Positions 14,487 to 30,700 are shown, numbered from the stretch's first letter. The stretch: 32,000 nucleotides of DNA from an uncultured Pelotomaculum sp. (GCA_964413055.1 CAYPRB010000003.1:183765-215764), one strand, 5' to 3'. Notes: a model not told the origin generated them from the sequence alone. Numbers and translations: made by a program.

Positions 14487-14520
14487 GTTGCAGGGACTAA
14501 ACAGTTAAAAAGACGCTAAA

Positions 14521-14567
14521 AGGCCGCATCAGCGGCCTTTTAATTTTGCCCGGCAAATTTGCCGGGC
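14521..14567. terminator. Bidirectional intrinsic terminator pair
   Basis: AGGCCGC-ATCA-GCGGCCT flanked by A-run/T-run (14521-14543), and GCCCGGCAAATTTGCCGGGC (14548-14567). They lie between the M23 fragment (+) and ubiX (-). Confidence 0.7.
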
Positions 14568-14690: not shown

Positions 14691-15263
14691 TCAGGCAAGG
14701 GTAATCACTTTCTCCCATCTATTAACCAGGGAATTTCTAATCCCCAACTGATCAAATACCCGCCCTGTCGTCTGTTTAACAATATCTTCTATATCCCTGG
14801 GGCGGTTGTAAAATGATAGAACCGGGGGCATGATTACTACTCCGAGCCTCGACAGCTTGAGCATGTTTTCCAGATGAATGGGACTCAACGGGGTTTCCCT
14901 TACCAGAAGGACTAACTTGCGCCTCTCCTTGATTGTTACATCGGCGGCGCGGTTAATTAAATTATCTGCATATCCGTTGGCTATCGCGGAAAGAGTTTTC
15001 ATGCTGCAGGGAGCCACCACCATTCCCTGATGCAGATAGGAACCGCTTGCCGGTGGCGCCGCAATATCACTATTGGAAAACTTATGGCCGGCCAATTCTT
15101 GAATGGCTTCCAGTTTATAATCCGTTTCCAGCTGAATTGTCTTTTTTGCCGAATCACTAATGATTAACTGCGTTTCTATTCCGGCTTTTTTTGCTTCTTC
15201 CAGGAATTTGATGCCGTAAACTGCCCCGGTAGCACCCGATATTGCCACGACTATTCTAAACAA
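14691..15263 (-). CDS. ubiX: UbiX-family flavin prenyltransferase (B subunit), copy 1
   Basis: 190 aa. IVVAISGATGAVYG...VVAPCSMKTLSAIANGYADNLINRAADVTIKERRKLVLLVRETPLS.IHLENM. TTG start with RBS GGGAGGGGG. Confidence 0.92.
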   Translation of the reverse strand: MFRIVVAISGATGAVYGIKFLEEAKKAGIETQLIISDSAKKTIQLETDYKLEAIQELAGHKFSNSDIAAPPASGSYLHQGMVVAPCSMKTLSAIANGYADNLINRAADVTIKERRKLVLLVRETPLSPIHLENMLKLSRLGVVIMPPVLSFYNRPRDIEDIVKQTTGRVFDQLGIRNSLVNRWEKVITLA

Positions 15264-16295
15264 AAGAACCCCCTCCCTTTTTTATGCAAGAATCTTTCAC
15301 TAACTGAGCTGCTGAATATCTACCGGGTTAGGTGCCCGGTAATCTGCATTTATCAAAAGACATCATTTAGTTAGTACTATTAAGCACAGCACTATTTATT
15401 AGAACCTTTTATTTTTTATATAGCCTACCACACAGGTAAAACCCTTTCTATATTCAAGCAAGACAGGATATATGACAGGATGCTGTCTAAAACAACAGTT
15501 GTCATACGGGTAGATACAGGACAGTCCAATATAACAGTTTTCAAACCCCTCTAAAATAATTGTGAACAGATCCGGGCTTTGAAAAACTTTTTTATTGCAA
15601 CTTCAATATAAACTGGGACTAGCAAGCTTCAAAAACTGTTGTTTGTGTCGAATATATGCGTTATTTGTTGTAAGTTAAACAAAGAACAATATCTACAATT
15701 CTAACTATGGCATGTAATAGTATCGTTAATATTAATATACAATGTAATTTTATTGCAAACATTGATAGGCAAAAACGTCAAGTAGAGCGATATCAGTACA
15801 AAAGGTAAAAAGTTGGGACCACTGTTCGATGAGATAGTATATCGCAAAATATTCTACCTTGTTTGACTATAGCAAAGGTTATTCTTGCATGTTATATTTT
15901 AAGCAGTTAAAAATTAGGGGGGTTAATGTCTATAAGTATAGTGCCCCATTAGGATATTGACAACGCTTAAGAACATTTAACTGTAATGTAATTTGTATTT
16001 TGACAAAGCACATGCAAAACAAAAGCTCAATTTTGAACTATCCTTGTAGTAGGCAAAAATTTTAGCAAAAGATTTTAGGGTAGGCAAGGCAAAAAATGAG
16101 GTTGTTTAAGAAAAATTAGATGATGAGGTGGTGCTATGACGAATCAAGCTGGGCTAAAGGTTCGAGTCCAGCTAATATAAAAACAAGATACGGGAAAGTG
16201 AAAAGTTAATAATCTCGGGAAAAGCACAGGTGTTAAACCAAATTAACTTATGAAGCTCAGTTAGGGAATTCAGTCAAGAATCTTAAAACTTGTAT

Positions 16296-16460
16296 TTATT
16301 GCGTGAATATGGTCAGGATGAAGGAGCCGTGAAAGCGCCGGACCGGCGGCACCACGGATAAAAGTGTTCCTGGCAAAATTGGGGACGGGGAACTCAAGCC
16401 CGAGCATATTCCTGCGAGCCCTGGGTTGTGCAGCAGTACTTTAGCCACGGAGTAAAACCA
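16296..16460 (+). promoter_or_regulatory. GC-rich, hairpin-rich leader upstream of UbiD paralog 1 (possible cis-regulatory RNA; class unassigned)
   Basis: This is a visibly more GC-rich patch inside a ~1.2-kb AT-rich spacer. It contains the hairpin GCGCCG-GAC-CGGCGGC (16335-16350). CCGTG (16327-16331) can pair with either of two CCACGG copies (16352-16357 or 16445-16450). It ends ~40 nt before the RBS AAGAGGTGG. Confidence 0.3.
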
Positions 16461-16502
16461 TTGAATTTTAAATGAAAAATTTAACAAAGAGGTGGTTGCG
16501 CA

Positions 16503-17930
16503 GTGTATCGTGATTTGCGTGAGTTTTTAGCTAAATTAGAACAAGAAGGACAGCTTGTTCATATTAAAGATGAAATTTTACCGGAACCGACTATCCGGGA
16601 AATTGGCCGCGCAGCCGTAGATTTACCCAACGGCCCGGCACTCCTTATTGAAAATATCAAAGGTCACCCCGGCAAGAAAGTGGCTTTGAACGTCCATGGT
16701 TCCTGGGCAAATATTGCTTTAATGATGGGTCTGGATAAAAACACGCCGGTCAAGGAACAGTTCTTTAATTTTCTCGATAAATGGGACAGGTATCCTGGCG
16801 AAACCAAGTTTATAGATAAGAACAAGGCGCCCTGCCACGAAGTAGTGATCAAAGATAACATAAACATTGTTGAAATGCTGCCGATGTTCCGGATCAACAA
16901 ATGGGATTCCGGTATGTTTTTCTCCAAAGCATCAGTAGTTACCAGAGACCCTGATGATTCCGGCAACTTTGACACCCAAAACGTCGGCACCTACAGGATG
17001 CAGGTGATGGGCAAAGACCTGGTGGGCATCCAGGCTCTTGGCTTCCACGACATTGCCAGGCATATCACCCATGCGGAAGAACAAAACAAGCCGCTGCCAA
17101 TCGCTGTATGTCTGGGCGTAGATCCGGTGCTCACCTTTATGGCCAGCACACCGATCAACTACGATCAATCGGAGTACAAGTATGCCGCGGCGATTAACGG
17201 CATCCCGATGGAACTCACCAAAGCTGTAACCTGCGATCTTGATATAACGGCATATGCCGAGTATGTCCTTGAAGGTGAAATCATTCCTCGCGTACGGGTA
17301 CCGGAAGGGCCGTTCGGCGAATTCCCGGGTAGCTATTCAGGAACCCGTCTCCAGTCACAGTTCAGGGTGAAATGCATTACCCACCGTAAAAACCCCATTT
17401 TCGAGAACCTCTTTATGGGCCGTCCCTGGACCGAAATTGACTATCTGATGGGTCTTAATACCTGCGTGCCGCTTTACAAGCAGATGAAAGAAACCATGCC
17501 TGAAATAGTGGCTGTCAATGCCATGTATCAACATGGTTTAACCGCCATTGTTTCCACCAGCAACCGTTTCGGCGGCTATGCCAAGTCAGTTGCTTTCCGC
17601 ATGGCCTCCACACCGCACGGCATTTCCTATTGTAAGAACATCATCCTGGTTGACGCCGATGTCGACCCCTTCAACCTGGAACAGGTCATGTGGTCCCTAT
17701 CTACCAGGGTGCGCCCCGCCAAAGACGTTATTGTTGTTCCCAACACGCCCGGCATGCCGCTTGATCCCACCTCGGAACCTGCCGGTATGGGCGCCAAGTT
17801 CATTATTGACGCGACCCAACCCACTGATCCGGACGTGGGGCTGCGTGATACCAGGCTGATCGACAATCCAGATTCAAAAGGTTTTGAGAAGATAATTGCT
17901 GATCTGCAAAAAGTGGAGACTAATAAATAG
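16503..17930 (+). CDS. UbiD-family prFMN-dependent aromatic acid (de)carboxylase, C subunit, paralog 1
   Basis: 475 aa. LREFLAKLEQEGQLVHI...QNVGTYRMQV...FHDIARH...QSEYKYAAA...EGPFGEFPGSYSG...ILVDADVDPFN...VMWSLSTRVRP. These are the UbiD metal/prFMN and Glu-Arg-Glu region motifs. Confidence 0.92.
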   Translation: MYRDLREFLAKLEQEGQLVHIKDEILPEPTIREIGRAAVDLPNGPALLIENIKGHPGKKVALNVHGSWANIALMMGLDKNTPVKEQFFNFLDKWDRYPGETKFIDKNKAPCHEVVIKDNINIVEMLPMFRINKWDSGMFFSKASVVTRDPDDSGNFDTQNVGTYRMQVMGKDLVGIQALGFHDIARHITHAEEQNKPLPIAVCLGVDPVLTFMASTPINYDQSEYKYAAAINGIPMELTKAVTCDLDITAYAEYVLEGEIIPRVRVPEGPFGEFPGSYSGTRLQSQFRVKCITHRKNPIFENLFMGRPWTEIDYLMGLNTCVPLYKQMKETMPEIVAVNAMYQHGLTAIVSTSNRFGGYAKSVAFRMASTPHGISYCKNIILVDADVDPFNLEQVMWSLSTRVRPAKDVIVVPNTPGMPLDPTSEPAGMGAKFIIDATQPTDPDVGLRDTRLIDNPDSKGFEKIIADLQKVETNK

Positions 17931-17973
17931 TTACCAGATATAATACCGATTCTACTAAAAGGGGGATATATGC

Positions 17974-18201
17974 ATGAAGTGTGTGCGTTGTTTAAATGAT
18001 ACCGCAGCTAAGTTTGCTGAAGCTCCGGATAAGAGTGGGGCCTGGGAGATGTACATCTGCAGCAAATGCAATTTTTCGTGGCGTAATACTGAAGAGGAAG
18101 ATGTAATTAATCCGGAATTGCGGGATCCGAATTTCCAGCTTTCCAATGAAGCAATAGCAAATCTGCAAATTCTGGTGCCGGTTCCTCCCCTGCGCAAGTA
18201 A
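17974..18201 (+). CDS. Small D subunit of BsdBCD/VdcBCD/EcdBCD-type hydroxyarylic acid decarboxylase, paralog 1
   Basis: 75 aa with CxxC-N21-CxxC (MKCVRCL...YICSKCNFSWR) and a PVPPL tail. It sits directly downstream of the C subunit, which is the canonical position and size. Confidence 0.8.
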   Translation: MKCVRCLNDTAAKFAEAPDKSGAWEMYICSKCNFSWRNTEEEDVINPELRDPNFQLSNEAIANLQILVPVPPLRK

Positions 18202-18368
18202 GTTGTATTCTGTAAAATTTTTAAATAGTTAATGCGTTGGGTATTAATCTAAGATAAAATTAAATAAAACCTATTTGGTATGTCAAGTATTTAATTGTCG
18301 TAAGAATTTTTAAAATGTAACCGTGTAAGCCAATTCCTCCTCTCAGGGAAATGGATGGGGCTTGATGG

Positions 18369-18410
18369 GCCATCTGAAAAACTTAATAGATTTTCAGATG
18401 GCCTTTTTTT
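18369..18410 (+). terminator. Rho-independent terminator of the paralog-1 C-D operon
   Basis: GGCCATCTGAAAA-(10 nt)-TTTTCAGATGGCC followed by TTTTTTT. Confidence 0.85.
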
Positions 18411-18648
18411 CAAAATTTATCAGAAAATGAAGCTGACTATCGTGGATCCAGGCAAAAAAATTATTCAAAATTAAATTAAGACTTTCCATGGGTGATAATA
18501 TACCGGTTTTTTGTCCGCGAAAGACCGGATGCTATTTCATCTTTATATTCTGCGTAAATGTGGTCTTGTCTCATTTATTCTCAAAAAATTCAGGAAATTA
18601 CCTTGTTTAATGATATAATGATAGCAGATTCAAACAGCTCATAATGGG

Positions 18649-20598
18649 GTGGGGGTGAGTCTAATCGGTATTCAAGAAATGCAGATGGAAACAATGCTTA
18701 GATTGCAGGCCGGATTGGGTAAGAATTACTTAAAAGATAAGCGTGTACTAATTCTTAATGCCAAAGCAACCGGAATTCTGCGCAAAGATCTGATTTATAC
18801 CCTGGGTATAGAAAAAGCTAAGGGATTTTTAATCCGTTTCGGTTTTAACAACGGTTACCAGGATTTTGAAAACTCTGTTAAAAACCTCCCCCAAAACGCA
18901 AAAAATGATAGATATCAAATGGCTATTAATTTCCACAGGTTTATTGGTATGGCCAACGTCACCCCTCATTTGCACCATCGAGATGACGCCAATCATACCT
19001 GGACATGCGAAGGTACCTGGCATGATTCTTACGAAGCAGAGCACCACCTTAGGCATTTTGGTTCTGCAACAGAACCGGTATGCTGGACGCTGGTCGGCTA
19101 CGCCAGTGGGATCATGTCGGCTTTGTTTGGTGAAAGGGTAATAATCAAGGAAGTGTCCTGCGCTGCCATGGGTGACCAGTGCTGCCGTTACGTCGGCAAG
19201 AAGCTGTCTGATTGGGGCGAGGAGATAACTTCCGAGTTGCAGTACTACCATGGAACCAGTTTGGGCCAGGGGGCGGAGTGGCCGAATGCCAGTATTCAGG
19301 AGCAAAATGAGGTAATAAAACAATCACTGGCCATACAGAAGCAGATGACCAGGATGGTGTTAAATGGTGAAGAAATGTCAAAAATTATAAGCATGGTGGG
19401 CAGGATTATGGGCGCCACGGTAGTTGTGGAAGACCGGTCTTTTCAGCCGGTTGCCTATTATTCACCTACTATTTCAACTAAAAAAAATCCGACCACACAG
19501 GCGCCTTTTTCAACTAAAGACATCATCGGCGACTGGCGGTTGCGTCACCTGGCTAACACTTTAATTCAGGAAAAAAAGCCTGTAAGGCTCCCGGCGGAAC
19601 TGACCAGGAAAACTGTTTCCCAATTCATTTACCCAATAGAAATTAAACAGGAAGTCCTGGGTTATGTCAGTATATTTAAGCCCGAATTTAATCTAACAGA
19701 TCATGAAAAGATTATCATGGAGTATATGAATTCTGTCTTTGCCATCAAGATGGTACAGGACCGCACTGTTGCTAAAACTGAAACCCGTTTAATAGGTGAC
19801 TGCGTTTTTGAATTAATCGAGGGCAACTTTAAGTCTGAAGCTTCTATTATTGAAAGAGCGCGCTGTATAGGTTACAATCTTAAACTGCGTCATCAGGTGC
19901 TTGTAGTTGATCTAGATCGCACCGGGGTAAGTCTACCCAGAAGGTCGGGGCGGGGCGAAAGACAGGATCCCGGTTTAAAGGAACAGATGTGTGAAGCAAT
20001 TAACAGAGAGCTTAATATATATAATAAGTCCGGCACTGTGACAACCAATGGTCATTATATTATTGTCCTTGCAGCTCTGGAAAAGAACGCAGCCCCTGAC
20101 GTAACTACCGGGCTGGCACGGAATATTCAAAAGCTGATTGCAAGGAAGTTCCCGGTCACCGTTTCTATTGGTATAGGCCGGGTTTGTTATAAACCCAGGG
20201 ATTTTAGCCAGTCTTACCAGGAAGCCCGGTGGTCACTAAAGGTTATCAGAGGGTTAAACCAGGCTAATATGGTTATTTCCTTTGAAAGTTTGGGTACATT
20301 TGGACTCCTGTTTAACGCTGCCAATCAGGAAGACCTACTGGATTTTATGCAGGGACAACTGGGCAAATTGCTGGAATACGACACTAAGTACAACAGCCAG
20401 CTTGTAGAGTCACTGCATCATTATTTTAGTTGCAACGGCAATATTAAAGAGGCCGCCAAAGCTGCAGCATTGACCATAAGCGGTTTTAAGTATCGCCTCA
20501 AAAGATTATGTGAAGTAGGCAGCTTTAACCTGAAAGATCCGAATAAAAGATTTGATTTACAGTTAGCTTTGAAAATATGGTGTTTAATTAAAGGATGA
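18649..20598 (+). CDS. Hybrid transcriptional regulator: XylR_N + V4R aromatic-sensing module fused to a PucR-type body and C-terminal HTH
   Basis: 649 aa. The N-terminus ([41 protein letters not shown]...[17 protein letters not shown]...[17 protein letters not shown]) looks like the XylR/DmpR A-domain (XylR_N+V4R). The C-terminus ([36 protein letters not shown]) is the PucR HTH_30. There is no AAA+ sigma-54 domain. The start is ambiguous (GTG 18649/18655 or ATG 18679). Confidence 0.8.
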
Positions 20599-20940
20599 AC
20601 GACAGAGGTATATCCACATTTTTCAATAACAGACAACTTATTTTCGATTGTATCTATCTCTGGATAGGCATTAACCCAGTACTGCTGGATTTCCTCTGGT
20701 CTTGTATCGGTTAACCATGAGATTTCAGAAACAGCAATATAACCGTTATCCTTCAAATAATTTCTCCACAGGGACAGTCCCTTTTCAAAACCGATGTTGT
20801 AGATTGCCCCCTCCGACCATAAAATATAAAAACTGCGGTAGCATATCCACCGCTGTTATTTGTGCAGCTGTGTTATTTGCAAGGTTTAATGTTTGACCTC
20901 CAGTCCCACAGCCAATGTCCAATATTTTAGTTTTTTCATT
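20599..20940 (-). pseudogene. Class I SAM-dependent methyltransferase remnant (internal deletion plus frameshift, truncated at both ends)
   Basis: My own translation gives [38 protein letters not shown]. After a frame jump near 20818-20830 it continues [73 protein letters not shown]. Homology stops where the regulator gene ends. Confidence 0.6.
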
Positions 20941-20976
20941 CAATATTTGTCTCGTGTAATTCGATTTTCGACAGGA

Positions 20977-21022
20977 TACTACAATATATATTAGTACTGT
21001 TAGTATTAATATATATTGTAGT
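20977..21022. repeat. Near-perfect 21-bp inverted repeat (hairpin/palindrome)
   Basis: ACTACAATATATATTAGTACT (20977-20997) pairs with TAGTATTAATATATATTGTAGT (21001-21022), with one mismatch. Confidence 0.7.
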
Positions 21023-21246
21023 GATATTTTGCTTTAAACATCTTTATTATTTTAAAAAGTAATTTACTATTAAACTAGTATATAATATAATAAAAGAGTC
21101 AGTAATATAAAATAATACTAGCTTCTCATGCTCTAACAGTTTCCCCTGAAAAAGGGGGATTTAAAAAAACTTTAATCTTCATAATGCAGATAATCTTACC
21201 TGTTAGGTTTTTGGGGTCTAACTCATACTTAACTTGGCTAACTTGG

Positions 21247-21525
21247 TCAGGTTGTATGCAAATATTGAGTTGCCAACCCAGTATTTTGCGCCAGAGTTCC
21301 TCTGAACAGACTTCGTCTTAACCCGTACTTGCGTTTAAGATCTAGCAGCATTTTTTTACCCTTATAAGGTAAGCTAATTCTTTTCACGCCTTTAAGTTTT
21401 TTGACGAGGATGCAGTAAATCTGTTTTTGTTGCTTTTCAAGTTGTCTGTTTTTTTGTTTGATTTCCACTTTAGATATAGTTCCAAGCATCGTCCTACCGA
21501 TACTCCGCCCACAGACATGTTCCAA
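21247..21525 (-). mobile_element. C-terminal remnant of an IS1182/IS5-like DDE transposase
   Basis: EKQQKQIY...LDLKRKYGLRRSLFRGTLAQNTGLATQ resembles the ...EGK.IY...K...G.RR...RGL.KV...L.A C-terminus of IS1182/IS5 transposases. Only ~90 aa are present. Confidence 0.4.
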
Positions 21526-21626
21526 CCGCTGATTTTAACTGAAATTTTTCGGACAACATGAAGCGAACGCGTTATTACTATAAGAAACAGGTGCAGGTTT
21601 ACTAATAGTCAGCAGGGGTGATATTG

Positions 21627-22577
21627 ATGGAAATGCATCAGTTGGAATATGTCCTGGCCGTGGCAAAATATCATAATTTTACACGTGCTTCAGAAGTGTT
21701 GAAGACATCCCAGTCCTCACTTTCCCAGCAAATTATTAAATTGGAAAATGAGCTGGGCATCAGTTTATTCGTGAGAACAACCCGGTCTGTACAGCTTAGC
21801 CCGGCAGGAGAAGAATTTGTCAAGCATGCCAGGCGAATAATGTCAGAAGTAATTGAGGCCCGCCGGTGCATCCACGAGTATACATCCTTCGAAAAAGGCA
21901 ACCTGACGGTAGGAATCATACCTGTAGTGGGGCATTACCGTTTACCTAATCTGCTCTCATCTTATAAAAAAAACTTTCCCAGAGTAATTTTGAACCTCAT
22001 GGAAAGACAGTGCAATGAACTCATCCCCCTGTTGAATTCTCATAAAATTGACGCGGCTTTTGTTCATCAGACCGGTGAAGACCCCAATTTGCAATTTACC
22101 CCGCTGATAACCGATCAGATGGTTATTGTGACCAGTGAACGGCATCCCTTTGCCGCCAGGAAATCAATAAATATCAAAGAATTAGAATATGAAAAATTCA
22201 TTGCTCCACCACCTACTTCAGGCTACAATCAAGATTTTCAGAAAGCATGCCGGTCTGCAGAATTTAAACCCGAGATTATTCTGACTTGCTCTTCGGTTAA
22301 AACAATCCTTGGCTTGGTCCGTGAGGACCTCGGCATTGCAGCGTTGCCAGCCGGTGTAGCTTCAATGGACTGGGGGTTTGGGACAAAGAATTTAAAGCTG
22401 ATACCTACAATAAATTCAACTATTTTTCTGGCAACAAAGAATAAAGATTTATTCCCAACACTTAAAGAGTTTATAAAATTTACCTCAAAGTGGAGTCAAA
22501 AACAGACAAAACCGGACAATTATAAATTCATACCAATTAAATTATCTATCTCCGGACAAAAGTTGAAATTGGGTTAA
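21627..22577 (+). CDS. LysR family transcriptional regulator
   Basis: MEMHQLEYVLAVAKYHNFTRASEVLKTSQSSLSQQIIKLENELGISLFVRTTRSVQLSPAGEEF is the HTH_1 domain, followed by a LysR substrate-binding domain. I prefer the ATG at 21627 (SD AGGGGTG 6 nt upstream) over the GTG at 21618. Confidence 0.9.
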   Translation: MEMHQLEYVLAVAKYHNFTRASEVLKTSQSSLSQQIIKLENELGISLFVRTTRSVQLSPAGEEFVKHARRIMSEVIEARRCIHEYTSFEKGNLTVGIIPVVGHYRLPNLLSSYKKNFPRVILNLMERQCNELIPLLNSHKIDAAFVHQTGEDPNLQFTPLITDQMVIVTSERHPFAARKSINIKELEYEKFIAPPPTSGYNQDFQKACRSAEFKPEIILTCSSVKTILGLVREDLGIAALPAGVASMDWGFGTKNLKLIPTINSTIFLATKNKDLFPTLKEFIKFTSKWSQKQTKPDNYKFIPIKLSISGQKLKLG

Positions 22578-22663
22578 AATTTCTGTCTAGATTAGGAGAG
22601 AACCGGTTTGAGATTCAATCATCCTGTCCGGCTATTATTTGCGCAACTCTCTAACGAAAAAGA

Positions 22664-23191
22664 CTACAGCCAAACTACCAGCATGTCCCAGGCAATTTTC
22701 AGCCAGGCCGTGTAGGCATCCGGATGTTCTTTCATGTCTTTTTTTAAGTATTCCTTTGAGATCCACTTGTAATTAGCGACTTCTTTCTTATTCCTTTTCG
22801 GTGTACCTTCCCATTTCCCCACGAAGACATGATCATATTCCATTTCTGCCAAGCCATTTTCAAACTCAGCTTTATAAGTAAAGGAGAATATTTCCTCCAG
22901 CTCCGTGTCAAAACCCATTTCTTCCTGCAGCCTTCTGTGTACAGCTACCTTCAGGGATTCGCCCGGCCGTGGGTGGCCGCAGCAGGTATTCGCCCACAAC
23001 CCAGGACAGTGATACTTATATCCGGCACGCTGCTGGATTAACAACTCACCCCTGGAGTTGAAAACAAAAATAGAAAACGCCCGGTGCAGTTTTGGATTTC
23101 TGTGGGCATCGATCTTTTCAGCAGTGCCAATCATGTGATCATTTTCATCCACCAGAATTACATACTCATTATCTTTTCCGGTTTCTTTCAT
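22664..23191 (-). CDS. idi: Isopentenyl-diphosphate delta-isomerase, type 1 (Nudix)
   Basis: 175 aa. LHRAFSIFVFNSRGELLIQQRAGYKYHCPGLWANTCCGHPRPGESLKVAVHRRLQEEMGF...ENGLAEMEYDHVF aligns along its length to E. coli Idi as I recall it, including the catalytic Cys (TCCGHP) and the Glu region. RBS GGAGGTGG. Confidence 0.88.
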   Translation of the reverse strand: MKETGKDNEYVILVDENDHMIGTAEKIDAHRNPKLHRAFSIFVFNSRGELLIQQRAGYKYHCPGLWANTCCGHPRPGESLKVAVHRRLQEEMGFDTELEEIFSFTYKAEFENGLAEMEYDHVFVGKWEGTPKRNKKEVANYKWISKEYLKKDMKEHPDAYTAWLKIAWDMLVVWL

Positions 23192-23281
23192 AGCCCCACC
23201 TCCAGATCCTTTGAAAGCACCTGAATCTGAATATAGTTTTGGTCTTACCCAAACTATTTAACACTTGTTCTTAAAATCAAA

Positions 23282-23355
23282 CCAAAGCTATGGCACCCGG
23301 GATGGGGTATTCCCACCCCGGAATAGCAAGGTGCCGGTCCTTGCCATAGCTTTGG
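23282..23355 (-). other. 74-nt three-way-junction-like hairpin element downstream of the D subunit (copy 1)
   Basis: The basal stem is CCAAAGCTATGG(CA)/(TG)CCATAGCTTTGG. It encloses two sub-hairpins: CCGGGA-TGGG-GTATT-CCCA-CCCCGG and CAAGG-TGCCGGT-CCTTG. On the minus strand it is followed by TTTGATTTT, so it may act as a terminator. Confidence 0.45.
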
Positions 23356-23416
23356 CTTTGGCTATAAAGCCGAAAGCACACCACACTAGAGTCTTGTGAC
23401 TTTAAACAATCCCGGT

Positions 23417-23644
23417 TTACTTTTTGAGAGGAGGAACTGGTGAAAAAACCGGGATATTTTCGATTTCCACACCGGCCAGCTGGAACCAGGGATCTCTTTT
23501 TTCAGGGTCGATGACCTCGGGTTCCTCGGTTGAACGCCAGACATAATTGCACCGGTTGCAGATATATACCTCCCAGGCTTTGCTTCCGTCGGGCGCTTCC
23601 GCCACTTTAGCGGCGTTATCTGTTAAACAGCGGACACATTTCAT
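23417..23644 (-). CDS. Small D subunit of hydroxyarylic acid decarboxylase, paralog 2 (repeat copy 1)
   Basis: 75 aa with the four-Cys pattern MKCVRCL...YICNRCNYVWR. SD AAGGAG. It lies 22 nt after the C-subunit stop. Confidence 0.8.
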   Translation of the reverse strand: MKCVRCLTDNAAKVAEAPDGSKAWEVYICNRCNYVWRSTEEPEVIDPEKRDPWFQLAGVEIENIPVFSPVPPLKK

Positions 23645-23666
23645 GGTGAGAATCTCCTTTCGTGCT

Positions 23667-25100
23667 TTATCTGGCAGCAGCCTTTTGCAGGTCTACAAGG
23701 ATCTTTTGATACGGTTCCGCCTCGGGAATGCTGTCCACCATCCGTACCTCCCTGGATATTTCAGGGGCGGCGGGAGTTGTTGCGTCAATGATCAGTTTGC
23801 CGCCGATTCCCGGAGGCTCGGAGCATGGATCCAGAGGCATACCCGGCGTATTGGGGATTACGATTACATCTTTTTGAGGTCGTACCCTTGTAGATAAAGC
23901 CCACATGACCTGGACCAGGTTGAAGGGGTCCACATCCCCGTCTACAAGGATAATATTTTTGGCGTAGCTGGTACCGTGGGGGGTGGAAGCCAGTCTCATG
24001 CCCACCGTCTTGGCATAGGCGCCAAAACGGTTGTCTGTGGCGACGATGATCGTAAGGCCATGTTGATAAATGGCATTGACGGCTTTTACCTCCGGCATGG
24101 TTTCTCTCAACTGGAAATAAAGGGTTGCGCTTGTATTAAGTCCAATCAGGGTATCATGCTCCGTCCAGGGACGGCCCACGTACAGATTTTCAAAAATCGG
24201 GTTTTTGCGGGTGGTAACGGTATTAAGCTTAATCCGGAACTGGCGCCGGGAGCCCGAATAACTTCCCGGAAACTCACCGAAGGGTCCTTCAACGAAACGC
24301 TCTCTTGGTACAAATTCTCCCTCAAGCACAATTTCCGCATAGGCCGGGATGTCCAGATTAGCGGTAAGGGTCTTGGTTAAAATCTGGGGAGCTCCCATAA
24401 AGGCTGCCGCGTATTTGTATTCGGACTGGTCATATTGCAGGGGTGCGCTGGCCATCAGGCTGATCACGGGGTGGACGCCCAGGCATACGGCCACGGGCAG
24501 GGCCTTGCCCATTTCTTCCGCCTTGCGCAGGTGGATTCCGCCGTCATGGAAAGGCAACACCTGGATTCCCAGGGTGTCGGGTCCTTGGACCTGGATCCGG
24601 TACATCCCCACGTTCTGTTTATCCACATTATCAGGATCTTCCGGATCCCTGGTAACAACCGAGGCTTTGGAAAAGTAAAAGCCAGCGTCGTATTTGTTGA
24701 CCCGGAATAAAGGCAGGATTTCATAAAGATTAATATCTTTGGTGATTTTTACTTCCTGGCAGGGCGCGTCCTTAACCCATTTAATTTCGCCGTCACTGCC
24801 GCCGGCCCAGCGTCTGGCAAATTCAAAGAATTGATCTTTGAGCGGGGTGTCCTTGTCCATTCCCAGCATAACGGCATTGTTTGCCCAGGTGCCCAGAACA
24901 TTGATGGCAAGCCGCTTGCCTTTGTAGCCTTTGATGTTTTCGACCAGCACGGCCGGGCCTGTATTTCCCGCCGCTATATCCACGGCCGCCCGCCCGATCC
25001 GCCGGATATCCGGCTCGGGCATAACCTCATCGGTGTAGTGAACCAGCTGTCCCGTCTGCTCCAGCTTCTCTAAAAATCCGCGAAGACTGTTTCCTTCCAT
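23667..25100 (-). CDS. UbiD-family (de)carboxylase C subunit, paralog 2 (repeat copy 1)
   Basis: MEGNSLRGFLEKLEQTGQLVH...QNVGMYRIQV...FHDGGIH...QSEYKYAAA...EGPFGEFPGSYSG. The start is set at ATG 25098-25100, with SD AAGGAG at 25109-25114 and an 8-nt spacer. The GTG at 25109 used by the ORF track overlaps the SD. Confidence 0.92.
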   Translation of the reverse strand: MEGNSLRGFLEKLEQTGQLVHYTDEVMPEPDIRRIGRAAVDIAAGNTGPAVLVENIKGYKGKRLAINVLGTWANNAVMLGMDKDTPLKDQFFEFARRWAGGSDGEIKWVKDAPCQEVKITKDINLYEILPLFRVNKYDAGFYFSKASVVTRDPEDPDNVDKQNVGMYRIQVQGPDTLGIQVLPFHDGGIHLRKAEEMGKALPVAVCLGVHPVISLMASAPLQYDQSEYKYAAAFMGAPQILTKTLTANLDIPAYAEIVLEGEFVPRERFVEGPFGEFPGSYSGSRRQFRIKLNTVTTRKNPIFENLYVGRPWTEHDTLIGLNTSATLYFQLRETMPEVKAVNAIYQHGLTIIVATDNRFGAYAKTVGMRLASTPHGTSYAKNIILVDGDVDPFNLVQVMWALSTRVRPQKDVIVIPNTPGMPLDPCSEPPGIGGKLIIDATTPAAPEISREVRMVDSIPEAEPYQKILVDLQKAAAR

Positions 25101-25155
25101 TGTTGCCACTCCTTTTTGTTAAGTAAAGATAAACCTTTAGAGGCCTTCTTAAGTA

Positions 25156-25710
25156 TTAGCCGTTCCATCTCCTGCCGTTTACCTGCTTGATGCTGAACTG
25201 GTCAAGTAGTTTCATGACATGATGGCTTACTATATCTTCTATGTTCTCCGGGTGATTATAAAATGCAGGCATTGGTGGAACAATTTTTACTCCCATATTG
25301 GCCAGAAGCAGCATATTTCTCAGATGGATGGGGCTTAAGGGTGTTTCCCTCGGGCATACTACCAGTTTTCTTCCTTCTTTGAGCATTACATCGGCTGATC
25401 TTGAAATAAGGTTTTCACAGTAGCCGTTGGCGATAGAACTCAGGGTCTTCATGCTGCAGGGAACAACGATCATGCCGTCAGTGAGGAAGGAACCGCTGGA
25501 AGTTTTAGCACCAAGGTTTTTATTGTCATATACCGCTGCAGCCAGGTTTTCCAGATAATCCACAGAGCAGTTGGCTTCTAATCTCAGGTTTTCCTTGGCC
25601 CAGTGGCTCATGATCAGGTGGATATTTATATTTTTTTCTTTTAAAGCTTCCAACAACCTTACTGCGTAAATCGATCCTGTCGCACCAGTAATTCCCACGA
25701 CAATTTCCAT
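25156..25710 (-). CDS. ubiX: UbiX-family flavin prenyltransferase (B subunit), copy 2
   Basis: 184 aa. IVVGITGATGSIYA...IVVPCSMKTLSSIANGYCENLISRSADVMLKEGRKLVVCPRETPLSPIHLRNM. Confidence 0.92.
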   Translation of the reverse strand: MEIVVGITGATGSIYAVRLLEALKEKNINIHLIMSHWAKENLRLEANCSVDYLENLAAAVYDNKNLGAKTSSGSFLTDGMIVVPCSMKTLSSIANGYCENLISRSADVMLKEGRKLVVCPRETPLSPIHLRNMLLLANMGVKIVPPMPAFYNHPENIEDIVSHHVMKLLDQFSIKQVNGRRWNG

Positions 25711-25848
25711 TTTATTACCCCTTATTTAATAATAAAAAATCCTTTAATGAGCAGCGGTTCCAGGGTATTTAATCAATGCTAGGTCAAGGTTAATACGGAT
25801 ATCGTAGCACTGACGACGCAGGATTCTTAAAAGCCGGACGGGTATACC

Positions 25849-25922
25849 CCAAAGCTATGGCACCCGGGATGGGGTATTCCCACCCCGGAATAGCAAGGTG
25901 CCGGTCCTTGCCATAGCTTTGG
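25849..25922 (-). other. 74-nt three-way-junction-like hairpin element (copy 2)
   Basis: Identical to 23282-23355. It forms the outer edge of the 1838-bp repeat and has no adjacent U-run on the minus strand. Confidence 0.45.
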
Positions 25923-25983
25923 CTTTGGCTATAAAGCCGAAAGCACACCACACTAGAGTCTTGTGACTTTAAACAATCCCGGT

Positions 25984-26211
25984 TTACTTTTTGAGAGGAG
26001 GAACTGGTGAAAAAACCGGGATATTTTCGATTTCCACACCGGCCAGCTGGAACCAGGGATCTCTTTTTTCAGGGTCGATGACCTCGGGTTCCTCGGTTGA
26101 ACGCCAGACATAATTGCACCGGTTGCAGATATATACCTCCCAGGCTTTGCTTCCGTCGGGCGCTTCCGCCACTTTAGCGGCGTTATCTGTTAAACAGCGG
26201 ACACATTTCAT
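25984..26211 (-). CDS. Small D subunit, paralog 2 duplicate (repeat copy 2)
   Basis: The protein string is identical to 23417-23644. Confidence 0.8.
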   Translation of the reverse strand: MKCVRCLTDNAAKVAEAPDGSKAWEVYICNRCNYVWRSTEEPEVIDPEKRDPWFQLAGVEIENIPVFSPVPPLKK

Positions 26212-26233
26212 GGTGAGAATCTCCTTTCGTGCT

Positions 26234-27667
26234 TTATCTGGCAGCAGCCTTTTGCAGGTCTACAAGGATCTTTTGATACGGTTCCGCCTCGGGAATGCTG
26301 TCCACCATCCGTACCTCCCTGGATATTTCAGGGGCGGCGGGAGTTGTTGCGTCAATGATCAGTTTGCCGCCGATTCCCGGAGGCTCGGAGCATGGATCCA
26401 GAGGCATACCCGGCGTATTGGGGATTACGATTACATCTTTTTGAGGTCGTACCCTTGTAGATAAAGCCCACATGACCTGGACCAGGTTGAAGGGGTCCAC
26501 ATCCCCGTCTACAAGGATAATATTTTTGGCGTAGCTGGTACCGTGGGGGGTGGAAGCCAGTCTCATGCCCACCGTCTTGGCATAGGCGCCAAAACGGTTG
26601 TCTGTGGCGACGATGATCGTAAGGCCATGTTGATAAATGGCATTGACGGCTTTTACCTCCGGCATGGTTTCTCTCAACTGGAAATAAAGGGTTGCGCTTG
26701 TATTAAGTCCAATCAGGGTATCATGCTCCGTCCAGGGACGGCCCACGTACAGATTTTCAAAAATCGGGTTTTTGCGGGTGGTAACGGTATTAAGCTTAAT
26801 CCGGAACTGGCGCCGGGAGCCCGAATAACTTCCCGGAAACTCACCGAAGGGTCCTTCAACGAAACGCTCTCTTGGTACAAATTCTCCCTCAAGCACAATT
26901 TCCGCATAGGCCGGGATGTCCAGATTAGCGGTAAGGGTCTTGGTTAAAATCTGGGGAGCTCCCATAAAGGCTGCCGCGTATTTGTATTCGGACTGGTCAT
27001 ATTGCAGGGGTGCGCTGGCCATCAGGCTGATCACGGGGTGGACGCCCAGGCATACGGCCACGGGCAGGGCCTTGCCCATTTCTTCCGCCTTGCGCAGGTG
27101 GATTCCGCCGTCATGGAAAGGCAACACCTGGATTCCCAGGGTGTCGGGTCCTTGGACCTGGATCCGGTACATCCCCACGTTCTGTTTATCCACATTATCA
27201 GGATCTTCCGGATCCCTGGTAACAACCGAGGCTTTGGAAAAGTAAAAGCCAGCGTCGTATTTGTTGACCCGGAATAAAGGCAGGATTTCATAAAGATTAA
27301 TATCTTTGGTGATTTTTACTTCCTGGCAGGGCGCGTCCTTAACCCATTTAATTTCGCCGTCACTGCCGCCGGCCCAGCGTCTGGCAAATTCAAAGAATTG
27401 ATCTTTGAGCGGGGTGTCCTTGTCCATTCCCAGCATAACGGCATTGTTTGCCCAGGTGCCCAGAACATTGATGGCAAGCCGCTTGCCTTTGTAGCCTTTG
27501 ATGTTTTCGACCAGCACGGCCGGGCCTGTATTTCCCGCCGCTATATCCACGGCCGCCCGCCCGATCCGCCGGATATCCGGCTCGGGCATAACCTCATCGG
27601 TGTAGTGAACCAGCTGTCCCGTCTGCTCCAGCTTCTCTAAAAATCCGCGAAGACTGTTTCCTTCCAT
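26234..27667 (-). CDS. UbiD-family (de)carboxylase C subunit, paralog 2 duplicate (repeat copy 2)
   Basis: Identical to 23667-25100. The same SD and ATG are used. The 498-aa extension in the ORF track is rejected. Confidence 0.9.
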   Translation of the reverse strand: MEGNSLRGFLEKLEQTGQLVHYTDEVMPEPDIRRIGRAAVDIAAGNTGPAVLVENIKGYKGKRLAINVLGTWANNAVMLGMDKDTPLKDQFFEFARRWAGGSDGEIKWVKDAPCQEVKITKDINLYEILPLFRVNKYDAGFYFSKASVVTRDPEDPDNVDKQNVGMYRIQVQGPDTLGIQVLPFHDGGIHLRKAEEMGKALPVAVCLGVHPVISLMASAPLQYDQSEYKYAAAFMGAPQILTKTLTANLDIPAYAEIVLEGEFVPRERFVEGPFGEFPGSYSGSRRQFRIKLNTVTTRKNPIFENLYVGRPWTEHDTLIGLNTSATLYFQLRETMPEVKAVNAIYQHGLTIIVATDNRFGAYAKTVGMRLASTPHGTSYAKNIILVDGDVDPFNLVQVMWALSTRVRPQKDVIVIPNTPGMPLDPCSEPPGIGGKLIIDATTPAAPEISREVRMVDSIPEAEPYQKILVDLQKAAAR

Positions 27668-28316
27668 TGTTGCCACTCCTTTTTGTGGTTTTTTATTAAC
27701 TTCACTTTTTTTGAAAACAATCACATTCACTTTCTTTTAGATACATTCACCTGTCTATTCCTTTGTTTTTTGTTCTAATAGGCTTCACCCCTTAGATGCT
27801 GTATTTATGCAAATATTTTTTAAAGTCTTTTTTTGCAAACACGCGTTATCTATAATTCTTCTCATGTCAAAATTTTTACATAATTCATAATAGGTACTGG
27901 GAAGGTTATTAGTTAATTTAAAAAATGAACCGAGATTGATTTAAGTCTCTATTTTTATTATAATTTTAACATCAGTTAATGAAAAAAATGAAATATGTGC
28001 TTGCGATAGCATTATCGTTACTGAATATTAATTAACCGTTTAAAGAGATGGACTAAATTTGGAGTATTGTCCTCATAAGAGTGAAGTTTTACGTTTAGCT
28101 GCTACATCGTATATTACTATCAAGTATATGAATATATGCAATAATACACCCTATTCAATCATTATCTTGAGACTGTAAGAAGATAGTTTCCTGCACCTGG
28201 TTTACCTGGCGCATAAAACTGAAGTAAAATATAACTCAGCAGGTGGGTGACCATGTTAACGGTAAAAGCGGGGAAAACAGCAGGCTTAAAAATTTCTAAC
28301 CTGGAGCTGATAATTA

Positions 28317-28700
28317 ATGGGTATTATTGAAATTAATAAAGAATCCGATGGGTTGCATGTGCTTTTACAAGCAATCAATATGGGTAGGGATTGGAATGTG
28401 GTTATCACAGGCGGGGAAATTCCCCACCTGGGTTCTGTAGCTCTGGGCGTTCCGCGCCCCAGCTTGCAAGACCCTGAACATACCAGTGCTACGGTCTCTG
28501 TATTGACCCTGACCGGACACAAGGAAGATGAGATTGCCCGTCCGGCAGCTCATTTTCTGGCAAGCAGGCTTAATACACATGTCGTTGTTTCCTGCGGAAT
28601 CCACAACGATCAGATTAAACCCGGGGCTATCCGGCAGTTTGGTGAACTGGTGCGGGAAGGGTTAAACGACCTTGTTGCTGCTTGCAGCGAGGGGTCGTAA
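28317..28700 (+). CDS. LpdD-like small protein (putative prenylated-flavin chaperone/accessory subunit)
   Basis: 127 aa. VVITGGEIPHLGSVALG...LTLTGHKEDEIARPAA...VVVSCGIHNDQI resembles my recollection of the GG..PHIGAVA...H.ED...GIH signature of LpdD-type proteins found next to UbiD/UbiX genes. It is transcribed divergently from the C-D-B operon. Confidence 0.5.
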   Translation: MGIIEINKESDGLHVLLQAINMGRDWNVVITGGEIPHLGSVALGVPRPSLQDPEHTSATVSVLTLTGHKEDEIARPAAHFLASRLNTHVVVSCGIHNDQIKPGAIRQFGELVREGLNDLVAACSEGS

Positions 28701-29017
28701 GTAAGCTTTTGGGATTGTTCAAAGATAATGAAAGAAGGGGGGAAACGGCAGGCTCTCCGGGAACGGTGCGGAATTTAAGGAGCCGTTATCTTAAAGTTGT
28801 CCGTTGATTGTTCGGGGAAGCCCGGCAAATTTAAAACGCTGTTTTTTAACAGTCCTTTTACATGCGCTGTTAACTCATTGTATTTATTACTGAATATTAT
28901 TGAATACATTCAAATCATCTGAAAACGGAATATCGCAACGTAAATAAAATTTAAAATTATAACCTGCGGTGGTTGGACGTGCTGCAAAACAAGTACCGGG
29001 CCATAAAATAGTGCTTT

Positions 29018-29067
29018 ATAACTAAACCTGCTTGAACAGCAGGTTTAGTTATAGGTATTATTTTTTT
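29018..29067. terminator. Bidirectional hairpin terminator between the lpdD-like gene and the ligase
   Basis: ATAACTAAACCTGCT-TGAAC-AGCAGGTTTAGTTAT followed by a T-rich run (ATTATTTTTTT). Confidence 0.7.
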
Positions 29068-30700
29068 ATCTCTGTGTTTGAGCTGCCACTAAACTCATGG
29101 CACCGTATTTTTCCCTTAAAAGCGGCTTTTCAATCTTGCCGGTGGGGTTACGCGGAACTTCATCAAAAATAATTTTCCGCGGGCGTTTATAACGCGGCAG
29201 TGGGGTGCAAAACGGCTTTATATCTTCTTCAGTGCATTTGCAGCCCGGTTTTAACTCTATAATGGCAGCCGCTATTTCACCCAGACGCTTATCAGGTAAC
29301 CCAATAACCGCTGCATCCTTAATTGCATTATGTGTACGGAGAAAGTCTTCAATTTGTACCGGATATATATTTTCTCCACCGCTAATAATTACATCTTTTT
29401 TCCGGTCAACCAAATAAATAAAACCGTCTTCATCCATCCGCGCCATATCCCCGGTAAATAACCAGCCATCCTTGATTACCGCCGCAGTCGCTTCCGGATC
29501 GTTATAATAGCATTTCATCACACCAGGTCCCTTGACAACCAATTCTCCAACCTGTCCCTGGGTTACGGGGCTTCCGTTATCGTCGGTAATTTTTACTTCC
29601 CAATTATAACCCGGTATTCCGATAGCGCCGACTTTATGAATATTTTCAGTACCTAAATGGACACACCCGGGGCCGATAGCTTCGCTGAGACCATAGTTCG
29701 TATCATAAAGATGTCCGGGGAAATACTTTTTCCAGCGATGAATCAAGCTGGGAGGAACCGGCTGCGCGCCGATATGCATCAGCCTCCACTGGGATAGTTC
29801 ATAATCTTCCAGATTCACGTCCCCTCTTTCAATGGAATCAAGAATGTCCTGGGCCCAGGGAACTAAAAGCCAGACGATGGTAATTTTCTCCTCGGATACG
29901 GTTCTTAGGATCCATTCGGGCTTAACTCCGCGAAGCAATACAGCCTTGCTTCCCGACAGCAAACTGCCGAACCAGTGCATCTTGGCACCGGTATGATAAA
30001 GCGGCGGAATGCATAAAAAGTTATCTTCACGCTTTTGACCGTGGTGATTAATTTCCGTATAACATGCCGACATCAAACTCTGGTGCGTATGCAATATAGC
30101 TTTTGGAAATCCCGTAGTCCCCGAGGAAAAGTATATAACCGCATCATCTTCATCCATAAGTTTAACCTGCGGGTCTTCGGAGGAACAATTGGCCGTAAGA
30201 CGGTCATAATTTTCGGCAAATGAGGGACGGTTTTCTCCCGCAAAAAAGAGTGTCTTTACTTTAGGTATATGATCATAAATCGTTTCCACCCGGCCGATAA
30301 ATTCAGGCCCAAAAATCAGGGCACTGGTTTCAGATAAATCCAAACAATGTTTTATTTCCTCGGCCGTGTAGCGAAAGTTTAACGGCACTGCAATAGCGCC
30401 GGTTTTTAATATACCAAAATAAATCGGCAGCCACTCCAGGCAATTCATTAAAAGAATAGCTACCTTATCCCCTTTTTTTATCCCCCTTTTCAGCAGTAAA
30501 TTGGCCAGTCTATTTGCCTTCTCGTCAAAAACCCGCCAGGTCATCTCCCGCCGGTATTCACCTGCCGGGTTGTTTTCAATTAGTTCATACTCACGCCAGG
30601 TAACATTGTGCCTTTCCTGAAGATCCAAATTGATCTCAGTAAGGCATTTTTCCTGTCCATATAACCGGGCATTTCGCGTTAATATTTCTGTGATGGGCAT
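29066..30700 (-). CDS. Class I adenylate-forming enzyme / acyl- or aryl-CoA ligase
   Basis: 544 aa. AMP-binding motifs YFSSGTTGFPKA, YGLSE, FTGDMA, ISGGENIYP and PRNPTGKIEK. RBS GGGAGGAAAAGG. Confidence 0.9.
   Translation of the reverse strand: MPITEILTRNARLYGQEKCLTEINLDLQERHNVTWREYELIENNPAGEYRREMTWRVFDEKANRLANLLLKRGIKKGDKVAILLMNCLEWLPIYFGILKTGAIAVPLNFRYTAEEIKHCLDLSETSALIFGPEFIGRVETIYDHIPKVKTLFFAGENRPSFAENYDRLTANCSSEDPQVKLMDEDDAVIYFSSGTTGFPKAILHTHQSLMSACYTEINHHGQKREDNFLCIPPLYHTGAKMHWFGSLLSGSKAVLLRGVKPEWILRTVSEEKITIVWLLVPWAQDILDSIERGDVNLEDYELSQWRLMHIGAQPVPPSLIHRWKKYFPGHLYDTNYGLSEAIGPGCVHLGTENIHKVGAIGIPGYNWEVKITDDNGSPVTQGQVGELVVKGPGVMKCYYNDPEATAAVIKDGWLFTGDMARMDEDGFIYLVDRKKDVIISGGENIYPVQIEDFLRTHNAIKDAAVIGLPDKRLGEIAAAIIELKPGCKCTEEDIKPFCTPLPRYKRPRKIIFDEVPRNPTGKIEKPLLREKYGAMSLVAAQTQR

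Follow-up and report, generated by a model that had tools for sequence, protein, structure and literature searches.

The window analysed here is a 32,000-nucleotide stretch of DNA from an uncultured Pelotomaculum sp. (GCA_964413055.1, CAYPRB010000003.1:183765-215764), in which positions 14691-30700 carry a group of genes for UbiD-type enzymes dependent on prenylated flavin mononucleotide (prFMN). Its proteins were taken from a listing of open reading frames (ORFs) and scanned with Pfam and NCBIfam models, scores being judged against the curated cutoffs; all genes listed in an original prediction, made from the sequence alone, were found where they had been placed. The genes form two neighbouring modules, A and B. 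The reading favoured here, to which we give a probability of about 55%, is that they encode two adjacent VdcBCD/ShdBCD-type, prFMN-dependent, reversible 4-hydroxyarylic acid decarboxylase/phenol carboxylase systems, of which A is induced by phenolics and likely works in the carboxylating direction and B is a second isoenzyme.

Module A comprises ubiX-A, vdcC-A, vdcD-A and a regulator gene, to which idi and lpdD would be added as ancestral partners. The ubiX-A gene (14691-15263, minus strand; Pfam Flavoprotein, TIGR00421) codes for a flavin prenyltransferase, the maker of reduced prFMN (prFMNH2), and is apparently monocistronic, a terminator scan having placed a terminator-like hairpin at 14516-14543. 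On the plus strand follow vdcC-A (16503-17930; NF041204) for the UbiD-family catalytic subunit of a hydroxyarylic acid decarboxylase/phenol carboxylase, vdcD-A (17974-18201; NF041205) for a four-Cys zinc-ribbon activator subunit of 75 residues, and the gene of a 649-residue regulator (18649-20598) in which Pfam finds XylR_N, V4R, GGDEF_2 and a PucR-type helix-turn-helix (HTH). Module B is a minus-strand operon with the order vdcC-vdcD-ubiX-vdcC-vdcD-idi. Its promoter-proximal copy lies in the ORF span 25984-27730 (vdcD-B2, 25984-26211; vdcC-B2, 26234-27667 from the probable ATG) and the other in the span 23417-25109 (vdcD-B1, 23417-23644; vdcC-B1, 23667-25100 from the probable ATG), with the flavin prenyltransferase gene ubiX-B (25156-25710; TIGR00421) between the two and, as final gene, idi for a type-1 isopentenyl-diphosphate isomerase (IDI; 22664-23191; NF002995, TIGR02150). 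A LysR-type regulator gene (21618-22577, plus strand; Pfam HTH_1 and LysR_substrate) stands beside idi, and an lpdD-like gene of the PAC_bac/LpdD_chaperone family (28317-28700, plus strand; PF21758), encoding a putative prFMNH2-binding chaperone, diverges from the operon.

The catalytic subunits of both types pass the VdcC model NF041204 (C-A 713.1 and C-B 690.0 against a cutoff of 650), with the UbiD_N, UbiD and UbiD_C domains all present, and their partners pass the VdcD model NF041205 (D-A 82.9 and D-B 81.7 against 30). Models of quinone-biosynthesis UbiD are missed by a wide margin (NF008175, 197 and 181 against 788; TIGR03701, 227 and 210 against 496), which upholds the earlier assignment to the BsdBCD/VdcBCD/ShdBCD type. 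C-A matches ShdC (7AE4) at E=2e-181 with 58% identity and C-B at E=2.7e-161 with 56%, the same distance as that between ShVdcC and BsVdcC, both of them characterised enzymes (PMC8379154). The catalytic E(D)-R-E residues are retained, E273 and E278 of ShVdcC corresponding to E268 and E273 of C-A and to E274 and E279 of C-B, together with the arginine of the NVG(T/M)YR motif and, in both types, the catalytic EGPFGE motif. Also conserved in A and B are the equivalents of L182 and M423 (C-A L179 and M418), residues that limit pocket size in ShVdcC (PMC8379154). The D subunits share the cysteine pattern C3, C6, C29 and C32 and match ShdD (7AE4_a, E=5.6e-15 for D-A), the four zinc-binding cysteines aligning with its C3, C6, C28 and C31. 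Judged by these alignments, the enzymes are new members of the known, structurally characterised VdcC/ShdC family, and the holoenzyme is predicted to convert 4-hydroxybenzoate (or a closely related compound) reversibly to phenol and CO2. A distance-based, midpoint-rooted neighbour-joining (NJ) tree of 80 VdcC sequences, which is indicative only, places both types in a subgroup rich in anaerobes and distinct from the ShdC/Clostridium/Bacillus/actinobacterial group, with type A sister to a Desulfosporosinus VdcC and type B forming a Pelotomaculaceae clade.

A different substrate typical of Pelotomaculum has to be weighed at this point, i.e., decarboxylation of terephthalate or isophthalate, or carboxylation of benzene or naphthalene by an AbcA-type enzyme. 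Pelotomaculum species degrade phthalate isomers, UbiD-like genes have been reported as terephthalate-induced (PMC9516798), and the closest genomes are bioreactor and metagenome metagenome-assembled genomes (MAGs). However, the two C subunits score above the cutoff of the VdcC-specific model and are each paired with a VdcD, the pocket residues of ShVdcC are kept, and the phenylphosphate carboxylase (PpcA/B) models are far out of reach (TIGR02723, 157 and 149 against 469; TIGR02724, 130 and 125 against 565). Moreover, a route of the phthaloyl-CoA type begins with a CoA ligase or CoA transferase (PMC9516798), neither of which belongs to the island, and the regulator carries a phenol-hydroxyl anchor. 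We therefore consider such a substrate highly improbable; roles in terephthalate or benzene metabolism or in quinone biosynthesis are unsupported by the family models.

The original prediction counted three C paralogs, each with a four-Cys D subunit of 75 residues. The genes and the cysteine pattern are there, but vdcCD-B is present as two exact copies, so that the distinct C/D types number only two, not three; between types A and B, identity is 63% for the C subunits, 64% for the D subunits and 49% for UbiX. The copies form a direct repeat of 1838 bp (23282-25119 and 25849-27686) with 100% identity and 0 mismatches, and the unit runs from the start of the ribosome-binding site through vdcC-B (probable ATGs at 25100 and 27667) and vdcD-B to an end 135 nt past vdcD. 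Identity of this degree over 1838 bp, and the single copy seen in the closest MAGs, could indicate an assembly artefact, in which case the island would contain no more than two C/D pairs. We hold this to be extremely improbable and reject it on three observations. In one relative (L003), a second vdcC-B survives behind ubiX-B only as a 5' piece of 182 nt, joined to the 3' portion of idi, an arrangement equivalent to deletion of window positions 22879-24924; the remnant is only 90.7% identical to that genome's own first copy, and the duplication is therefore old. The closest MAG, Pelotomaculum sp. UBA1371 (L002), reads vdcC-vdcD-idi and lacks ubiX-B, which is the exact product of recombination or assembly collapse between two repeats. 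Finally, four independent metagenome contigs end inside the repeat, three at 127-140 nt (L089-L091) and one at 224 nt (L001). The duplication is biological, and the 100% identity of the copies in the window points to gene conversion or a recent re-duplication.

The genes for cofactor supply also agree with what had been predicted. UbiX-A and UbiX-B, rightly described as two divergent prenyltransferases, pass TIGR00421 (265 and 243 against 109) and NF004685 (253 and 241 against 188); both fall short of the strict VdcB model NF041206 (270.1 and 272.5 against 290), and they are consequently classed as UbiX-family proteins, not as strict VdcB. The type-1 IDI, with a Nudix fold, passes NF002995 (181.9 against 127) and TIGR02150 (140.7 against 105.8), and its alignment to 3HYQ shows equivalents of H25, H32, C67, H69, E87, Y104, E114, E116 and W161, whose catalytic and metal-binding roles we take to be those of E. 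coli Idi. The LpdD-like protein (127 residues) scores 120.6 against 27 with PF21758, a family named LpdD_chaperone by one annotation source. A single-sequence phmmer search with this protein gave no match; a profile built from it and 17 homologs matched the LpdD structures 8P4W, 8PZH and 8PO5 at E=1.2e-13. LpdD itself binds prFMNH2 as a chaperone and aids UbiD activation (PMC10865409), and the LpdD-like protein may be regarded as its homolog, with putative prFMNH2 binding. A weak, stop-interrupted lpdD-like remnant (25820-25927, minus strand; 39% identity over 36 residues) lies just downstream of vdcD-B, and a matching one is found in repeat copy 1 at ~23282-23360, which suggests that module B once possessed an lpdD of its own.

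This toolkit of UbiX, type-1 IDI and LpdD-like protein is conserved with the enzyme in other genomes, and lpdD-like genes adjoin vdcCD and ubiX across many phyla. IPP (isopentenyl diphosphate) isomerase has been recruited twice from two unrelated classes, type-1 here and type-2 in Desulfosporosinus, a pattern in favour of IDI being functionally linked to prFMN supply; the independent recruitment of the type-2 enzyme argues that supply of the prenyl donor is really limiting. A link of IDI to UbiX clusters was not found in the searched literature.

The regulator of module A combines domains that are known from separate families. Its N-terminal 200 residues match the sensor domains of DmpR (6IY8), MopR (5KBE) and PoxR (5FRU) at E ~1e-34 and keep the phenol-hydroxyl anchors H106 and W134 of MopR as well as the zinc ligands C155, E178, C181 and C189. 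The sigma-54 AAA+ domain (PF00158) gave no match in the protein, and the C-terminal half passes the PucR/CdaR-type models GGDEF_2 (66.8 against 24.5) and HTH_30 (50.7 against 27). By this domain composition, it is not a member of the NtrC family, and its likeness to XylR, DmpR and MopR is confined to the sensing domain; the unusual non-sigma-54 V4R regulator of the original prediction is thus borne out. In an exhaustive HMMER search, ~65 of the 150 best clusters (clustered at 50% identity) aligned to it over the full length, and the members of this family are named in the sources only as hypothetical or "XylR N-terminal domain-containing" proteins; no paper describing this V4R-PucR type was found in the searched literature.

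The genomic contexts of these relatives are informative. In addition to adjoining vdcCD-A in related genomes, the regulator has paralogs, 47-55% identical, beside genes for phenylphosphate synthase, PpcB (610 against 469), a 545-residue ligase and a subunit resembling 4-hydroxybenzoyl-CoA reductase (HCR) (L087, 688-11950); beside a molybdenum enzyme resembling 4-hydroxybenzoyl-CoA reductase and an ADP-forming CoA ligase (L083, 2365-12180); and beside a PaaK-type ligase and a TRAP transporter (L085, 6070-9959). Relatives in distant Bacilli (L081, L082) stand next to genes for aerobic phenol hydroxylase and meta-cleavage. From these contexts, the V4R-PucR family looks like a group of Gram-positive regulators responding to phenol, and in Desulfotomaculaceae several steps in the anaerobic breakdown of phenol seem to be under a single regulator family.

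Conservation of the neighbourhood was surveyed, as the original prediction had proposed, by tblastn of the window proteins against 78 genome loci (referred to by L numbers), and both modules recur. Module A (lpdD, ubiX, vdcC, vdcD, regulator, idi) is conserved in at least 7 genomes (L002, L004, L025, L026, L028, L029, L038). In the latter five, which belong to Pelotomaculaceae/Desulfotomaculaceae, it has the form lpdD(+) ubiX(-) vdcC vdcD regulator idi(+) at 63-81% identity, and in L025 it sits as a compact inserted block with pur/his genes on one side and pcrA-amj-ligA-gatA on the other. Module B is conserved together with its divergent LysR gene in at least eight genomes, among them L002-L006, L009 and L010, while L007, L008 (P. 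propionicicum) and L011 show only the vdcC-B/vdcD-B pair before the contig ends or matches cease. Since the same gene sets recur in related genomes, their grouping is not due to chance. Only in L002 and L004, the closest relatives, do the two modules lie side by side. The best matches of the window are Pelotomaculum MAGs, with 99% amino acid identity for VdcC-B, 89-93% for the other proteins and 87-91% overall at the nucleotide level; the family Desulfotomaculaceae includes Cryptanaerobacter. In L003 (616-10001), an insertion separates lpdD from vdcC-B by ~9 kb instead of ~0.6 kb.

A more distant cluster, in Desulfosporosinus sp. BRH_c37 (L080, 8001-16059), is a co-directional, closely spaced run of genes and an apparent complete operon. 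It encodes, in order, a V4R-PucR regulator, a PaaK-type CoA ligase, a 61-residue ORF, VdcC (734 bits), VdcD, UbiX, a type-2 IDI (371 against 281) and a PNPOx-like protein; when the last was considered as a relative of the solved prFMN maturase PhdC, no PDB sequence match was obtained. This cluster fits the logic of a carboxylase plus a ligase better than the window does, and only with the acid as product does such a gene run make sense. No paper describing it was found in the searched literature.

Regions that might carry regulatory signals were also compared. The ubiX-A/vdcC-A spacer of the window (15264-16502) is AT-rich, has no ORF of at least 60 residues and, at 1.24 kb, is far longer than the ~500 bp of L025-type loci; ~1 kb of it (all except 15592-15820) aligns to L002 at ~87-88% identity, and it presumably holds divergent promoters or operators. 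Conservation between the upstream regions of the window type and the L025 type was looked for and none was found. An inverted repeat, CTGTCAAAT..GGACAG and then TTATTGTGTCTGTTCAG, is conserved in L025, L026 and L029 and degenerate in L028 and L038. Lying ~250-300 nt upstream of vdcC-A (alignment columns ~55-75), it is a candidate operator for the V4R-PucR regulator in the three former loci; this candidate, CTGTC-N-GACAG, is absent from the window and from L002. Rfam gave 0 matches at gathering scores over the whole window and 0 at E<=1 in the spacer, by which a riboswitch or other RNA element was rejected, and the GC-rich leader upstream of vdcC-A (16285-16502) is no more stably folded than shuffled sequence (z = -0.64).

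Beyond the lpdD-like gene lies an AMP-forming acyl-CoA ligase gene (29066-30700, minus strand), which we place outside the system on the basis of Pfam/NCBIfam scores, PDB matches and synteny. The original prediction had this adenylate-forming ligase trap the carboxylated product as a CoA thioester, making the island one self-contained pathway of aromatic activation. The gene is indeed only 366 bp from lpdD, and such a logic is realised in Desulfosporosinus BRH_c37, albeit with a different, PaaK-type ligase. However, it is convergent to lpdD with a strong shared hairpin between them, and on its other side lies an IS66-family transposase gene (30861-31988, minus strand; Pfam DDE_Tnp_IS66, NF033517), full-length at 470 residues in L088-L091. 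The best NCBIfam model is the long-chain-fatty-acid ligase PRK06187, at 428.7 still below its cutoff of 476, and the best PDB matches are FadD13 and FadD5. The protein shares 25% identity with a phenol-cluster ligase, has no relationship to ligases of the PaaK type, and showed neither specific similarity to aromatic-acid ligases nor conserved linkage to a carboxylase.

The survey weighs further against a role of this ligase: none of the 78 related loci carries it at a distance of 10 kb or less from the island. In the syntenic relatives, housekeeping genes come after lpdD, the series in L002 and L004 being a radical-SAM gene, DUF1385, prfA, prmC and sua5. Homologs of 87-91% identity stand alone in many Firmicutes that are not aromatic degraders; such stand-alone genes were seen in Syntrophomonas wolfei, Desulfosporosinus, Defluviitalea, Petroclostridium and P. 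propionicicum, in the last on another contig than vdcC-B. The ligase is not part of the island and is a neighbour by rearrangement; it was accordingly rejected as a pathway member. The ligase-trap model is already largely refuted by synteny, and we judge it very unlikely. The 544-residue ligase was also seen, at 87-91% identity, in Desulfallas, Phosphitispora, Desulfitibacter and even a Bacteroidota MAG (P0050-P0169; L092-L095); its homologs are always of ~544 residues and alone in unrelated contexts, an unusually strong conservation for a FadD-like ligase.

The mechanism proposed for the two systems runs as follows. A phenolic compound would bind the MopR/DmpR-like sensor domain of the regulator and switch module A on, the regulator activating transcription through its PucR-type DNA-binding output and independently of sigma-54. 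Idi would raise the level of dimethylallyl diphosphate (DMAPP), UbiX would prenylate FMNH2 to prFMNH2, and the LpdD-like protein would bind prFMNH2 and pass it to apo-VdcC, while VdcD would stabilise catalytic loops, as in ShVdcCD. The VdcC6D6 complex would most likely carboxylate phenol to 4-hydroxybenzoate, as entry to a Cryptanaerobacter-type route from phenol through 4-hydroxybenzoate to benzoate/benzoyl-CoA, for which the genes of the CoA ligase and the dehydroxylating reductase would lie in other parts of the genome. Module B, under its BsdA-like LysR regulator, would provide a second isoenzyme at double gene dosage that is probably acid-responsive. In Cryptanaerobacter, phenol is converted to benzoate via 4-hydroxybenzoate, and homologs of 4-hydroxybenzoate decarboxylase BCD have been proposed as its phenol carboxylase (PMC5946492). 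The pathway, called possibly undescribed in the original prediction, was overstated in this respect; what the searched literature does not describe is the conserved bundling of the enzyme genes with those for IDI and LpdD, the family of V4R-PucR regulators, or the tandem duplication with its homogenised copies.

The main rival to phenol carboxylation is that both modules are purely detoxifying decarboxylases, which turn phenolic acids such as 4-hydroxybenzoate or vanillate into phenols and CO2 with no catabolic pathway after them; the V4R regulator would then sense the phenolic acid or the phenol produced. We regard this as possible, with limited confidence. Module A as a six-gene, self-contained insert among housekeeping genes, with no ligase or reductase nearby, would suit such a role, as would the classic LysR-plus-BCD arrangement of module B, and characterised members of the family have been assayed as decarboxylases (PMC8379154). 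The glycine that replaces MopR F132 in the sensor pocket would leave room for a para-substituted phenol. However, the regulator keeps the phenol-hydroxyl anchor of dedicated phenol sensors, its relatives flank, and would control, genes of phenol catabolism, namely those for phenylphosphate synthase/carboxylase and an HCR-like enzyme, and the Desulfosporosinus sister cluster has a co-directional CoA ligase gene directly upstream of vdcC; on these three grounds, phenol-induced carboxylation is favoured for module A. The lineage, moreover, includes the phenol-carboxylating Cryptanaerobacter.

Several observations weigh against phenol carboxylation as outlined. Bacterial UbiX uses dimethylallyl monophosphate (DMAP), not DMAPP, and the island encodes no step from DMAPP to DMAP. 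Bacillus systems of the BsdBCD type are detoxifying decarboxylases. No 4-hydroxybenzoate-CoA ligase or 4-hydroxybenzoyl-CoA reductase gene occurs within 10 kb of any Pelotomaculaceae module A, and the module hosts P. propionicicum and Ca. Syntrophopropionicum are known as propionate oxidisers, not as aromatic degraders, which also counts in favour of detoxification. At three pocket or gate positions, the regulator departs from MopR (G for F132, Q for M100 and P for V116), which makes a substituted phenol, or even a hydroxybenzoate, a possible effector. The sequence does not reveal substrate or direction, and both are inferred here, as are the effector and the part that each protein plays in cofactor supply; what is shown are the gene identities, family membership, operon layout, conservation of the modules, the biological nature of the duplication, the conserved sensor residues and the exclusion of the ligase.

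A broader proposal, which we put forward tentatively, is that, in strictly anaerobic Desulfotomaculaceae, lpdD, ubiX, vdcC, vdcD, the V4R-PucR regulator and idi make up a self-sufficient cassette for phenol carboxylation without ATP. Phenol would act as its inducer through a family of Gram-positive phenol sensors that do not depend on sigma-54 and had not been recognised before; in related bacteria, the phenylphosphate and 4-hydroxybenzoyl-CoA reductase steps would come under this family as well, and the LpdD-like protein together with IDI feeding UbiX might enable O2-independent loading and maturation of prFMN.

Other features of the window lie between or outside the modules. Between the regulator genes is a frameshifted pseudogene of an S-adenosylmethionine-dependent methyltransferase (20600-20950, minus strand), recognised by three-frame translation as a motif followed by a frameshift; in the close relatives compared (L002-L004), a second idi occupies this place between the LysR and V4R regulator genes. 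Nearby are a near-perfect, AT-rich palindrome of 45 nt (20978-21022) and a 92-residue ORF with no Pfam match (21247-21525, minus strand). About 800 bp from ubiX-A, a PadR-family regulator gene (13558-13911, minus strand) overlaps that of a "permease prefix" membrane protein (12906-13574, minus strand); PadR proteins control phenolic acid decarboxylases in some Firmicutes, but no link of this gene to the island came to light. The region 313-10615 is unrelated to the island and encodes an HsdM methylase of a type I restriction-modification system, a 525-residue N6_Mtase/specificity hybrid, a GHKL histidine kinase with a LytTR response regulator, a YaiI-family protein and two surface proteins, one with SLH and Listeria-Bacteroides repeats and the other with BspA-type leucine-rich repeats and CBM_X2.

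UbiD/prFMN enzymes are of interest for the fixation of CO2 onto aromatics, and the supply of prFMN under anoxic conditions, with its oxidative maturation, is a standing question. A module from a strict anaerobe that combines the enzyme with UbiX, an IPP isomerase and an LpdD homolog offers a defined gene set for co-expression tests. The regulator, in which the phenol-sensing domain of MopR/DmpR is joined to a sigma-54-independent output, would be a new biosensor scaffold and would mark anaerobic phenol metabolism in Gram-positives, where regulation is little known. Furthermore, the island provides a genetic handle on the route from phenol via 4-hydroxybenzoate to benzoate in the Pelotomaculum/Cryptanaerobacter syntrophs of methanogenic reactors.

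Among known systems, the BCD homologs of Cryptanaerobacter sp. G14 (PMC5946492) share bacterial family, enzyme family and proposed role with the island. However, that report lists only the BCD genes, with ligase and reductase elsewhere, and has no regulator, idi, lpdD, second paralog or duplication. The Desulfosporosinus BRH_c37 run has an orthologous regulator (53% identical), the sister VdcC, VdcD, UbiX and an IPP isomerase; it differs from the island in the PaaK-type ligase directly upstream of vdcC, the type-2, FMN-dependent IDI, a PNPOx-like protein in place of the LpdD-like one, and a single C/D pair. The gallate decarboxylase LpdBCD of Lactiplantibacillus plantarum (8P4W, 8PO5; PMC10865409) has PF21758, the GG..PH.G, HK and GIH motifs and the linkage to ubiX and a UbiD enzyme in common with the island. 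In contrast to LpdBCD, the island joins an LpdD-like protein and VdcD to one enzyme, the partner is of VdcC type and not LpdC, the host is a strict anaerobe to which O2-dependent prFMN maturation is unavailable, and prFMNH2 binding is putative.

The regulators MopR, DmpR, PoxR and XylR have a homologous sensor (A) domain with the same phenol-hydroxyl anchors and zinc site, and likewise stand next to phenol-metabolising genes. Unlike these, the island regulator has no sigma-54 AAA+ domain or Fis-type HTH; its output consists of GGDEF_2 and PucR HTH_30, the three pocket positions are changed, and its hosts are Gram-positive. For the enzymes themselves, the known counterparts are ShdBCD/VdcBCD of Sedimentibacter hydroxybenzoicus (7AE4) and BsdBCD of Bacillus subtilis, which decarboxylate vanillate and 4-hydroxybenzoate reversibly and share the UbiD-type C subunit, the 75-residue four-Cys D subunit, an adjacent UbiX, the EGPFGE motif and the L182/M423 pair, and module B resembles bsdA/bsdBCD also in its divergent LysR regulator. 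The island differs from both in the order C-D-B instead of B-C-D, in the additional idi and lpdD-like genes, in the V4R-PucR regulator that takes the place of LysR in module A, in the tandem duplication affecting vdcCD-B, and in the position of its C types in a separate NJ subgroup.

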